Virus record (IMG/VR): IMGVR_UViG_3300045988_028249
Location: 1 to 5,227 of that record
Strand: one strand, 5' to 3'
Length of the DNA: 5,227 nt
Origin: a virus
The first letter of the stretch is position 1; each line of letters starts with the position of its first letter. A program made the position numbers and the translations under genes. Below the pieces are notes generated by a model. That model saw only the letters and a program-made list of their open reading frames with translations. It did no database searches and was not told where the DNA came from. Below are positions 1,051-5,227 of the stretch, piece after piece.

Positions 1051-1234
1051 CTGCCTACATCCCTTTTATTGCGCGTAGGCGAAGCCTAAAGCCGCGCCCC
1101 TTGTCGCCAATTCGGAGTCCAATTGTGTTCCAAGGCGCGGCGTAACGCAGCATCTCCTACGTGTTTAATGGATGTACCGCGTAGGGCGCTCTAAGAAGAT
1201 GTCTCACCTAGCGCGCCCCTACTTTCAATACCTA

Positions 1235-1260
1235 TTACCCGCATCGCGGGTTTACTTTTT
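1235..1260 (+). terminator. Candidate rho-independent terminator: stem acccgc/gcgggt with loop atc, followed by TTTACTTTTT
   Basis: GC hairpin (1236-1241 / 1245-1250) followed by a T-rich run 1251-1260. It lies 185 nt downstream of the VP1-VP2-ORF8 gene block. Confidence 0.4.
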
Positions 1261-1408
1261 CCGTGGTAAGCCTCTAAAGAGGCAACTCCCCTTTCGAGCC
1301 AAAAGGGCGGCGTGCCGAAGGCCGCCGGTCGTTGGCGTAGAAAGGATGTCGGCGGTAGTGGCGGAGATCTGAGACCTAAGCCGAGACTGTGTAGGAACTG
1401 CGAGCGGT

Positions 1409-1471
1409 GTCGTAGCGTTACGAAGTCGCGTAGCTTGCGAAGCGAACGAGTAGCGCGTAGACATCGCGAAG
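1409..1471 (+). repeat. Three degenerate direct repeats (~17 bp; consensus approx. CGCGTAGC-TT-(A/G)CGAAG), iteron-like, 80-140 nt upstream of the Rep gene
   Basis: gtcgtagcgttacgaag (1409-1425), tcgcgtagcttgcgaag (1426-1442), gcgtagacatcgcgaag (1455-1471). A related CGCGTAG motif also occurs at 1073-1079 and 1179-1184. Confidence 0.4.
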
Positions 1472-1550
1472 CGTTCCGAAACAGGCTCGTGCGACGGTCG
1501 AAGGTCGCCGCCGCGACAAACCGCCGACCCCCACTACGGAGTGAGATCGT

Positions 1551-2963: not shown

Positions 2964-3449
2964 ATGTGTATGTTTCGTACCCGCTACGCGAAGGACGTTA
3001 AAGCGCCTTCCCACGGTATCGAGTTCGTACAGCCCTCTCAGGCTATCCAGTCGGAAAAGGAAGGTACGACGATTGATTACTACCTGCGTAAATACGCTTC
3101 TACTGGCATTCTTGGTGATCCTGAATCCGCGATGAACATGCAGTTTGGTGACTTCACGGATGCCCCTGATTTTGAGACTGCCCAAAACCGTGTCGTTCAG
3201 GCGTCGATGTATTTCGACAATTTGCCCGCGAAACTCCGCGAACGCTTCGGAAACGACGTTCGCGAAATGATGGCATTCCTCTCGAAGGAGGAAAACCATG
3301 AAGAAGCCGTCAAACTCGGTCTGCTTGAGGCTCTGCCTGAAGCTCCTACACCTTTACCCGAAGTCGAGCCCGTACACCCGATTACGGATGTTCAGAACCC
3401 TGCTAAGGAACCGTCTAGCGTTCCCGCCGAACCTAAACAGGAGGTTTAG
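2964..3449 (+). CDS. VP3: Internal scaffolding protein VP3 (161 aa from ATG 2964; the six-frame ORF extends to a TTG at 2949)
   Basis: Conserved core ...AMNMQFGDFTDAPDFETAQNRVVQASMYFDNLPAKLRERFGNDVREMMAFL..., typical of gokushovirus VP3 (QNR...LPA.LR.RFGND). Acidic/Pro-rich C-terminal tail. GGAG at 2951-2954 gives 9-nt spacing to ATG 2964. ATG 2970 is an alternative start. Confidence 0.85.
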   Translation: MCMFRTRYAKDVKAPSHGIEFVQPSQAIQSEKEGTTIDYYLRKYASTGILGDPESAMNMQFGDFTDAPDFETAQNRVVQASMYFDNLPAKLRERFGNDVREMMAFLSKEENHEEAVKLGLLEALPEAPTPLPEVEPVHPITDVQNPAKEPSSVPAEPKQEV

Positions 3450-3451
3450 AG

Positions 3452-3511
3452 ATGTTTCGCAAATCTCGCCGTCGTAACCGCCGCGGTCGCCGCGGCAAAA
3501 CCCGTCGCTAA
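3452..3511 (+). CDS. Tiny Arg-rich peptide (19 aa, MFRKSRRRNRRGRRGKTRR), a positional analogue of phiX174 J (immediately upstream of the major capsid gene)
   Basis: Strong SD AGGAGG (3439-3444) 7 nt upstream. Begins 2 nt after the VP3 stop. 12 of 19 residues are Arg/Lys. Located directly before VP1. Confidence 0.5.
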   Translation: MFRKSRRRNRRGRRGKTRR

Positions 3512-3592: not shown

Positions 3593-5227
3593 ATGAGCAA
3601 AACTTCTGCCCGCCCTTTTGGAACTTCCAACTCCCTTTTCTCTCAGATTCCGCGTGCTGAGATTCAGCGCTCTGCTTTCGATCGTTCTCATGGTTATAAG
3701 ACTACGTTCAATGAAGGTCTGTTGATTCCCTTCTTTGTGGACGAAGTCCTTCCTGGAGATACTTTTTCGCTCTCTTGGGCGGCTATTTGCCGTCTCACGA
3801 CCCCGATTGTTCCTTTCATGGATTCGATCTATCTGAAAGCTTATTGGTTCTTCGTTCCTAATCGTTTGGTCTGGAATAATTGGCAGCGCTTTATGGGTGA
3901 ACAGGAAAATCCCACTGATTCGACCGATTTCCTCGTCCCTTCTTTTAATACTACTGGCTCTGGCGCTACTTATGGCACGCTCTGCGACTACTTCGGCATC
4001 CGCACGGGTGTTAAAGGTATTAAGAATATTAATGCGCTCCCCTTCCGCGCCTACTTTAAGATTTGGAATGACTGGTTCCGCGATGAAAACTTACAGGATT
4101 CTCAAGGCGAATGGAATCAGACAACGAACCCTCAGCATTACACTGATCCGATTGGCGATGCTTCGATTGATTACACCTTGACGATGCCTTTGCGTCGGAA
4201 TAAGTTTCACGACTATTTCACGAGTTCTCTGCCTTGGCCTCAGAAAGGCGACCCCGTACAGATTTCGCTCGGTTCGTCTGTTCCTTTGTCTATTTCTAAC
4301 ACTCTTGCTGTTACTGGTAATGGTTCGCCGACTTTTACTAGTCCTTATGGTATTTCTGCGGCTGATGCTGTTAAGGCTTCTTCTAATAAGCCTACTACTT
4401 TGTACTTTGCCTCCTCGGGTAATGTTGCATCTTGGTCGAATCCTGCTCTTACTCTTTCTGGGTCTATTACTGGCACAGCCGATCTTTCTCAGGCTCAGCC
4501 GATCACCATCAATGACTTGCGCCAGGCTTTTCAGATTCAGAAGTTGAAGGAACGTGACGCCCGTGGCGGTACTCGTTATACTGAAATTTTGCGTGCGCAC
4601 TTTGGTGTCGTATCCCCTGACGGTCGTCTTCAGCGTTCGGAATTTCTTGGTTCCTCGACCTCTCAGATTTATGTCTCCGAGATTGCTCAGACGTCTGCCT
4701 CTGACTCGACTACCCCACAAGGCAACTTGGCTGCCTATGCCGTCGGCCGTGACCGCAAATTCGGTTTTACGAAGTCCTTTGTGGAGCATGGCTTCATCAT
4801 CGGCCTCATCACGGCTACTACGGACTTGACCTATCAGCAAGGCGTCAACCGTATGTGGAACCGTCGTGACAAGTACGACTACTATTGGCCTGCCCTTGCT
4901 CATCTTGGTGAACAGGCAACTCTTAACAAAGAGATTTTTGCCCAAGGCACTGCTGACGATGACAAGGTGTTCGGTTATCAGGAACGTTGGGCTGAGTATC
5001 GTTATTATCCGTCGATGATTACCGGTAAGTTGCGCTCTGATGACGCTCAGACGCTTGACATGTGGCACTTGTCTCAGCGCTTCGAGAACCTGCCCACGTT
5101 GTCCAGTCAGTTTATCGAAGACCGGCCTCCGATTGATCGTGTGGTTGCTGTGCAGTCTGAACCTCATTTCATTCTTGATGCTTGGTTTAAGTTGCGTTGC
5201 GTGCGTCCGATGCCGGTGCGCTCTGTG
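3593..5227 (+). CDS. VP1: Major capsid protein VP1 (gokushovirus-type). This is the 5' 1635 nt; the ORF continues across the circular junction to nt 143 (552 aa in total)
   Basis: Translation MSKTSARPFGTSNSLFSQIPRAEIQRSAFDRSHGYKTTFNEGLLIPFFVDEVLPGDTFSLSW...TPIVPFMDSIYLKAYWFFVPNRLVWNNWQRFMGEQ...ALPFRAYFKIWNDWFRDENLQ... carries the hallmark N-terminal motifs of Microviridae major capsid proteins. The frame has no stop before the window end. The six-frame track omits it only because it runs off the window. Confidence 0.97.
   Translation, partial: MSKTSARPFGTSNSLFSQIPRAEIQRSAFDRSHGYKTTFNEGLLIPFFVDEVLPGDTFSLSWAAICRLTTPIVPFMDSIYLKAYWFFVPNRLVWNNWQRFMGEQENPTDSTDFLVPSFNTTGSGATYGTLCDYFGIRTGVKGIKNINALPFRAYFKIWNDWFRDENLQDSQGEWNQTTNPQHYTDPIGDASIDYTLTMPLRRNKFHDYFTSSLPWPQKGDPVQISLGSSVPLSISNTLAVTGNGSPTFTSPYGISAADAVKASSNKPTTLYFASSGNVASWSNPALTLSGSITGTADLSQAQPITINDLRQAFQIQKLKERDARGGTRYTEILRAHFGVVSPDGRLQRSEFLGSSTSQIYVSEIAQTSASDSTTPQGNLAAYAVGRDRKFGFTKSFVEHGFIIGLITATTDLTYQQGVNRMWNRRDKYDYYWPALAHLGEQATLNKEIFAQGTADDDKVFGYQERWAEYRYYPSMITGKLRSDDAQTLDMWHLSQRFENLPTLSSQFIEDRPPIDRVVAVQSEPHFILDAWFKLRCVRPMPVRSV
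5109..5227. repeat. Second copy of the terminal redundancy (equals nt 1-119)
   Basis: Exact identity with nt 1-119. Confidence 0.95.

Follow-up and report, generated by a model that had tools for sequence, protein, structure and literature searches.

The block at positions 1051-1550 of the gokushovirus genome analysed here folds into an extensive structure that is under selection and specific for the + strand. We suggest, with a probability of roughly 40%, that this block is a complementary-strand initiation signal that acts at the level of single-stranded DNA (ssDNA) and that also contains the terminator of the late operon and the leader of the Rep mRNA; the action as DNA and the priming are the parts of this reading that we infer. 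We favor a DNA-level origin because of the DNA-specific motif grammar of the block, the match to the phage G4 control, the alternation between two cassettes, referred to as B1 and B2, and the accessory distribution of the block among relatives.

The window, i.e. the whole stretch of 5227 bases that was analysed, is one circular gokushovirus genome of 5108 nt, in which positions 1-119 repeat positions 5109-5227 as a 119-nt assembly overlap. All genes are encoded by the + strand, the one that Microviridae package. They comprise a VP2-like gene (155-757), an ORF of 42 aa (771-899), an ORF8-like gene for a basic protein of 39 aa (931-1050), which is called with the same size at the same position in relatives, the Rep (VP4) gene (1551-2558; PF23343), the VP5 gene (2599-2877), the VP3 gene (about 2964-3449) and the VP1 gene, which extends from 3594 across the circular junction. 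The block is exactly the gap from the end of the ORF8-like gene at 1050 to the start of Rep at 1551. Elsewhere in the genome, an Arg-rich ORF of 19 codons (MFRKSRRRNRRGRRGKTRR) is present at 3453-3511 between VP3 and VP1, in addition to the basic ORF8-like protein. The VP1 stretch at 4273-4478 has no alignment between the window and relatives that are 86-89% identical to it, and presumably corresponds to the hypervariable loop that VP1 typically has in gokushoviruses. The region at 2878-2940 after VP5 contains two GC-rich hairpins and a T-run, gives weak, sub-threshold Rfam matches to terminator-bearing sRNAs (anti-hemB, P9), and is probably a terminator or attenuator within the late operon.

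A preliminary description of this DNA had depicted the block as a non-coding, hairpin-dense and compositionally foreign region. Its non-coding status is borne out by the gene calls and by the ORFs in the block, which are not gene-like. Of these ORFs (66-124 aa), three are broken in relatives by 1-nt indels and stops; two that are mostly open have variable sites distributed over the three codon positions as 13/13/11 and 11/13/11, i.e. with no third-position bias; and the block ORFs have no Pfam match below E = 0.06. The broken frames, the lack of a codon-position bias and the lack of a Pfam family match rule out a protein-coding gene. The GC content of the block is 58.0% compared to 48.8% in the rest of the genome; thus, the contrast is real, but the values of 60% and 45% given earlier overstate it. 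We ascribe the high GC content to the requirements of stable stems, and the known complementary-strand origin of G4 has the same contrast. The block contains 17 inverted-repeat pairs and has a minimum free energy of -237 kcal/mol compared to -182 ± 6.7 kcal/mol in dinucleotide shuffles, in agreement with the hairpin density claimed for it. The expectation that gokushovirus spacers are short also held true: among 75 related IMG/VR loci, the spacer upstream of Rep has a median length of 21 nt and none is longer than 400 nt. The block is absent from most relatives and really is exceptional for its group.

The block is composed of two modules. Based on the alignment, module A (1051-1226) is common to all members of the clade regardless of the version of module B that they carry. 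Judged from the helices of the consensus fold, it begins with an imperfect hairpin of 128 nt (1053-1180) followed by a second hairpin (1181-1222) with 15 pairs, none of which varies. Module B is present in the window as version B1 (1227-1550). Close to its start is the hairpin that had been described as terminator-like and that we find at 1237-1251 (ACCCGC-ATC-GCGGGT), followed by the T-run TTTACTTTTTC, such that the complete element covers 1237-1261. It is invariant in all B1 sequences and is the counterpart of the terminator located directly 3' of the ORF8-like gene in relatives with short spacers. The combination that characterizes an intrinsic terminator, a GC-rich hairpin and a T-run at the end of an operon, accounts for 25 nt of the block only. 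In the consensus fold, B1 is a closed domain made of a basal helix (helix 7; 1255-1267 paired with 1533-1545), two small hairpins (one at 1270-1283 and one at 1290-1345 that has a CC-GAA-GG triloop) and a long hairpin.

The long, imperfect hairpin of about 60 bp (1348-1529; ~180 nt) is supported by covariation as well as by z-scores and consists of helices of 4-10 bp split by GNA/GNA or GA/GAA internal loops with C-G pairs closing. At its apex is a motif of 14 nt, CGTAGCTTGCGAAG (1429-1442), that includes the mini-hairpin sequence GCGAAGC. The Shine-Dalgarno sequence of Rep (GGAG, 1538-1541; start codon at 1551) is in the 3' strand of the basal helix. A 12-mer of the hairpin apex, GCTTGCGAAGCG (1433-1444), recurs at 1582-1593 in codons 11-14 of Rep, where it forms the hairpin TACCGCTTGCGAAGCGGTA; this copy is absent from B2-type phages.

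To gather relatives, we used the Rep protein, the 107 members of its cluster and pattern scans. This gave seven different complete versions of the block (the window, L002, i.e. IMGVR_UViG_2663763167_000003, L007, L011, L013, L017 and L020) and a partial one (L004). The block is ~95% identical among these phages, with parts at 98-100%, while the genomes are 86-89% identical, and we conclude that the block is under stronger constraint than the surrounding genes. A second type of block, B2, is present in L015 (from a Sutterella MAG), L016 and, in part, L003. In these three, module A is kept at about 92%, while the region from ~1227 to the start of Rep is replaced by a largely unalignable sequence of ~350 nt. 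B2 opens with a terminator-like hairpin and has a long GC-rich hairpin with the same 14-nt apex motif, which is the only stretch common to B1 and B2. A covariance model of the B1 hairpin matches the B2 hairpin weakly (23.8 bits, E about 0.005), with the match centred on the apex motif, and finds nothing in the 75 other gokushovirus loci or in the sister clade. The Rep proteins of the B2 phages are 93-97% identical to that of the window, and B1 and B2 phages sit in the same host locus (L011 and L016, respectively).

A sister clade (L010 and L024-26; Rep 45% identical) has a block of 285 nt and 62% GC after its terminator, carrying CGTAGCGAAGCGAAGG. The terminator hairpin equivalent follows the ORF8-like gene in L008, L009, L010 and L024-26; in L008 and L009, the spacer is just 33-85 nt and holds the terminator only. 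In the sister-clade block, the direct repeat GCGCGTGCGCGTG occurs twice just upstream of Rep (about 1440-1475 in L025; also in L010, L024 and L026); it is strictly alternating in purines and pyrimidines and could be an iteron-like or Z-DNA-prone feature. For covariation, this clade offers three near-identical sequences, which are too few.

Compared to dinucleotide shuffles, as proposed in the preliminary description, the block folds far better than the controls. With RNA parameters, z is -8.2 on the + strand and -4.8 on the - strand; with DNA parameters, the values are -5.2 and -3.2, respectively. In module A, the RNA-fold z is -5.0 on the + strand and -4.0 on the - strand, and in module B1 it is -8.0 and -4.1, respectively. 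For the long hairpin at 1348-1529, the RNA z is -9.4 on the + strand and -3.7 on the - strand, and the DNA z is -4.5 and -1.9, respectively. The consensus fold of the seven sequences (RNAalifold) contains 156 pairs with standard pairs in 98.8% of the cells, and 13 of the 156 pairs have compensatory double changes. In control analyses, structures slid by 1-3 columns had 0-1 compensatory pairs, and none of 500 shuffles reached the observed values. In the long hairpin, the variable stem positions are all compensatory (8 pairs), with no one-sided change. The consensus fold also has 12 invariant G-U/G-T pairs, and its one-sided changes favor G-T over A-C at about 9:3. Reading the GUA/GAA internal loops as sarcin-ricin/loop E motifs was rejected, as relatives have UGA/GAA and GGA/GUA at these places. 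The compensatory changes reflect purifying selection on the fold, which is under selection and + strand specific. Thus, covariation, conservation above that of the flanking genes and strand-specific folding strongly support the earlier proposal that the block is a structured element rather than an ordinary spacer.

The loops of this structure follow a distinct grammar. CGNAG occurs 16 times on the + strand of the block compared to 4.5 ± 1.9 times in dinucleotide shuffles (0/5000 reach 16), and the reverse complement CTNCG occurs three times on the same strand. This corresponds to a CGNAG density of 32 per kb in the block compared to 3.3 per kb outside it. Module A has five CGNAG with 0.9 expected (1/3000 shuffles), while in B2 the enrichment is borderline (p about 0.025) and in the block of the sister clade it is without significance (p about 0.09). 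The 33 GNA trinucleotides of the block are closed by C...G in 16 cases, by G...C in one, by A...T in two and by T...A in none, and the C-GNA-G motifs are retained in relatives with the middle N varying. GCGAAGC is present three times in the block and CCGAAGG once, and there is no GNRA or UNCG tetraloop among the predicted hairpin loops. According to a 2026 review, GCGNAGC and GCGNNAGC are extraordinarily stable DNA mini-hairpins that bind SSB poorly; they are found where primase starts in the complementary-strand origins of G4, St-1 and alpha3, as well as in ssiA of RSF1010 (CCGAAGG) and in N4 promoters (PMC13037366). How stable d(GNA) loops are is governed by their C-G closing pair (PMC3201870). 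We take the C-GNA-G motif, with its strict C...G closure, as one that stabilizes DNA and that points to a DNA-level role of the block.

In the model that we propose, host SSB would coat the circular ssDNA upon entry except at very stable hairpins, and modules A and B, with their array of hairpins rich in C-GNA-G, would stay folded. The folded array would then be a landing site for the host priming machinery, and the primer would enable conversion of the ssDNA to the double-stranded replicative form. B1 and B2 would be interchangeable origin cassettes. Non-homologous single-strand origins are found at equivalent places in phiX174 and G4 as well as in rolling-circle plasmids. The same DNA would hold the terminator of the late operon (1237-1261), and its transcribed form would be the leader of the Rep mRNA. 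A promoter scan gave no site in 1051-1550, and inspection by eye of both arms of the hairpin at 1348-1529 gave a TAGACA without a -10 partner. Because there is no -35/-10 pair in the stems of the block, an ssDNA promoter for RNA polymerase of the M13/ssoA/Frpo type is unlikely, and the priming enzyme would more likely be primase or PriA than RNA polymerase. Two short words, ACTACG at 1533-1538, which we take to be a pMV158-like nick motif, and TAGCGT at 1412-1417, presumably an ssoA CS-6-like sequence, are not used as evidence because each is a 6-mer expected by chance.

As in origins of this class, the block is non-coding, is on the strand that exists as ssDNA and has extensive strand-specific structure. 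As a control, we analysed the annotated complementary-strand origin spacer of G4. It is 136 nt long, has a GC content of 58% compared to 46% in the genome, and folds with z -4.9 on the + strand and -3.1 on the - strand; thus, the spacer shares the signature of the block while being about one quarter as long. The primase-dependent origins of G4, St-1, alpha3 and phiK (Microviridae, Bullavirinae) resemble the block in being intergenic, non-coding and on the packaged + strand, in having several stable hairpins with + strand-biased folding and an equally raised GC content, and in containing GCGN(N)AGC mini-hairpin motifs (PMC13037366). By contrast, the G4 spacer has three hairpins and is located between F and G, while the block has two modules, is located between the ORF8-like gene and Rep, has no sequence similarity to G4, and its priming is putative. 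Blastn against 50,697 phage records and 72,556 plasmids gave no similarity to the G4 origin or the RSB of ssoA, the generic GCGNAGC/CCGAAGG motif being all that is common. Size counts against the origin reading, the 500 nt of the block being 3-9 times the length of known phage origins of such a kind (55-140 nt).

Single-strand origins of rolling-circle plasmids are orientation-specific and highly structured, and they fall into several non-homologous classes that are shuffled as cassettes (PMC5703833, PMC4595007). Those of plasmids and ICEs (ssoA, ssoU, ssoT, ssoW, ssoL and sso1 of ICEBs1) are active only as ssDNA, form large imperfect structures, vary in position, and are accessory rather than essential (PMC5703833, PMC4595007); the exchange of classes matches the B1/B2 alternation. 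Unlike the block, they are about 160-300 nt long, mostly primed by RNA polymerase, have a conserved RSB and occur mainly in Gram-positive hosts, while no promoter-like hexamers were seen in the block. The F-plasmid Frpo is similar to the block in forming long imperfect hairpins over hundreds of nt, and it is reported to function only in the entering single strand (PMC11541004). However, Frpo has -35/-10 boxes in the stem and drives genes on the transferred strand, whereas these boxes are missing from the stem of the block, and transcription of the + strand would yield antisense RNA.

Except for its clade, the block has no match in the databases searched. There was no match to Rfam covariance models in the block at E <= 10 or in B2 and the sister block at E <= 1, and ARAGORN found no tRNA or tmRNA in the window. 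B1, B2 and the sister block had no blastn match among GenBank phages (50,697 records), nor did B1 among 72,556 plasmids; among GenBank phages, nothing is closer to the genome than about 70% identity over a quarter of its length. In exact scans, a B1 20-mer and a module A 26-mer each match only one IMG/VR contig, and a B2 pattern has no match in IMG/VR. An exact 22-mer was found in none of 185,579 species genomes and in one metagenome contig, which is a related phage. A host repeat (REP/BIME) or MITE was rejected because no copies were found in ~60 kb of flanks or in the 22-mer scan, with the limited sampling that this implies. In the searchable literature on gokushovirus origins and Sutterella, there is no description of the block or of any gokushovirus complementary-strand origin.

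Among the options listed in the preliminary description, a replication origin with secondary-structure signals is thus favored, and an ncRNA or leader is a live rival and the main one. In the latter scenario, module A and the terminator would be a structured 3' end of the late transcript (VP1-VP2-ORF8), and module B would be a leader that lowers Rep synthesis by hiding the Shine-Dalgarno sequence, with the basal helix perhaps being opened by a factor that binds the long hairpin. We consider this possible, if on balance doubtful. Because the packaged ssDNA and the mRNA share the + strand sequence, structure alone cannot tell which molecule matters, and every structural result fits an RNA element equally well. 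Several observations even lean toward RNA: folding is strongest with RNA parameters; the invariant G-U/G-T pairs and the G-T bias of the one-sided changes, i.e. tolerance of wobble-type changes, suit RNA at least equally; a terminator-like hairpin, which is a conserved feature of this junction in relatives, lies between the modules; and the only strong promoter-like site (2418-2446) would give a transcript that crosses the block to Rep. The helix at 1255-1267, which pairs with the GGAG at 1538-1541 in the consensus fold, looks like a translational device, and this argues against the origin reading. Its pairs never vary, however, and it is therefore without covariation support. Long mRNA leaders that occlude the ribosome-binding site are similar to the block in lying directly upstream of the gene and in having a basal helix over the Shine-Dalgarno sequence, but the block matches no known family, and its loop repertoire, with dominant C-GNA-G motifs and no GNRA or UNCG, is DNA-like. 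Moreover, a rod-like hairpin of 180 nt is unusual as a translational leader, and most relatives express Rep from a spacer of 21 nt. A DNA priming role and an RNA role are not mutually exclusive.

The position of the block immediately upstream of Rep also suggests a viral-strand (+) origin, in which a hairpin directly 5' of the Rep gene would present a motif for Rep to recognise and nick, an arrangement known from CRESS-DNA viruses and from many plasmids of the rolling-circle type. In line with this idea, the apex motif alone is kept between B1 and B2 in phages with closely similar Rep proteins, the sister clade with its divergent Rep has a related but different array (CGTAGCGAAGCGAAGG), and the near-invariant module A hairpin at 1181-1222 suggests sequence-specific recognition. 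We nevertheless regard this origin as distinctly improbable: relatives of close order have no hairpin upstream of Rep, no nick-site consensus was identified in the block, the known origin in Microviridae, that of phiX174, is inside gene A and is not a hairpin, and an origin acting on double-stranded DNA would not need + strand-specific folding. Even less probable, and in our view very unlikely, is that the block is captured passenger DNA, either a host REP/BIME-type repeat cluster or a non-autonomous IS200/IS605-type element. The GC-rich, hairpin-dense sequence with many GTAG and CGAAG words seen by eye would fit such an element, and ssDNA is the substrate of the relevant transposases. The proposal of acquired, compositionally foreign DNA was nevertheless not borne out: no copy or fragment was found in the about 60 kb of host flanks, which are a limited sample, in the phage and plasmid collections or in the 22-mer scan; every member of the clade carries the block, which exceeds the genes in conservation, and a comparable block is present in the sister clade; the fold is under purifying selection, as seen from the compensatory changes; and neither terminal inverted repeats nor duplicated target sequences were seen at the boundaries of B1 and B2. 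The suggestion of a packaging signal found no support, and we know of no packaging signal in Microviridae. Finally, the block could be neither a priming signal nor a simple leader but a large, rod-like nucleic acid structure of a new class in temperate gokushoviruses, e.g. a scaffold RNA or ssDNA decoy whose periodic G-A-rich loops and conserved apex would bind a protein of the host or the phage, or a lysogeny switch in a phage without a repressor; we consider this unlikely.

The phage is temperate and most likely uses the XerCD system of its host, outside the Enterobacteria, where this was first shown. A dif-like attP of 28 nt (ATTCGACGTTA-CTACTA-TTATGTTGAAT) is located at 2559-2586 right after the stop codon of Rep and is duplicated at the prophage ends, as seen at the junctions in L011 (5940-5990 and 11010-11050), L013, L015 and L016. 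The block is ruled out as the attachment site because the duplicated junction (11+6+11, 28 bp) maps to 2559-2586. The prophages are in Sutterella-like contigs, one of which is the MAG 'uncultured Sutterella sp. UMGS655', and are inserted between thiC and a xanthine/uracil permease gene; another site is in a host of 45% GC. Integration at a dif-like site is analogous to that of the XerCD-dependent enterobacterial gokushoviruses (PMC7062461). In L013, which represents a second host context, a gene for a tyrosine recombinase of 336 aa (4189-5199; Phage_integrase family) is located roughly 0.8 kb away from the end of the prophage and may encode the host Xer recombinase. The best sigma-70-like promoter (2418-2446; TTGACA, 17 nt, TATAGT, with TG) is within the 3' portion of the Rep gene, shortly before attP, and relatives retain it. 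Because integration would part this promoter from VP5-VP3-VP1-VP2-ORF8-Rep, it could silence the prophage without a repressor gene.

Gokushoviruses are among the commonest ssDNA phages of animal guts, and we know of no account of how they turn the incoming single strand into the replicative duplex. The block is a concrete, covariation-backed candidate for a signal in this step, and its natural variants, B1, B2 and the sister block, provide a ready-made set for swaps. Its motif grammar is unusual, with C-GNA-G loops at regular intervals along a hairpin of 180 nt. If a complementary-strand initiation signal is the right reading, the block would be a new and much larger version of a known kind of signal; if this reading is wrong, the block would be a structured RNA of a new type or something still more unusual. 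Should the structure act in RNA, it would represent a new structured family that controls the replication initiator of a temperate, repressor-less microvirus. If it acts in DNA, it would extend the mini-hairpin idea from single hairpins of the G4 type to a whole array.
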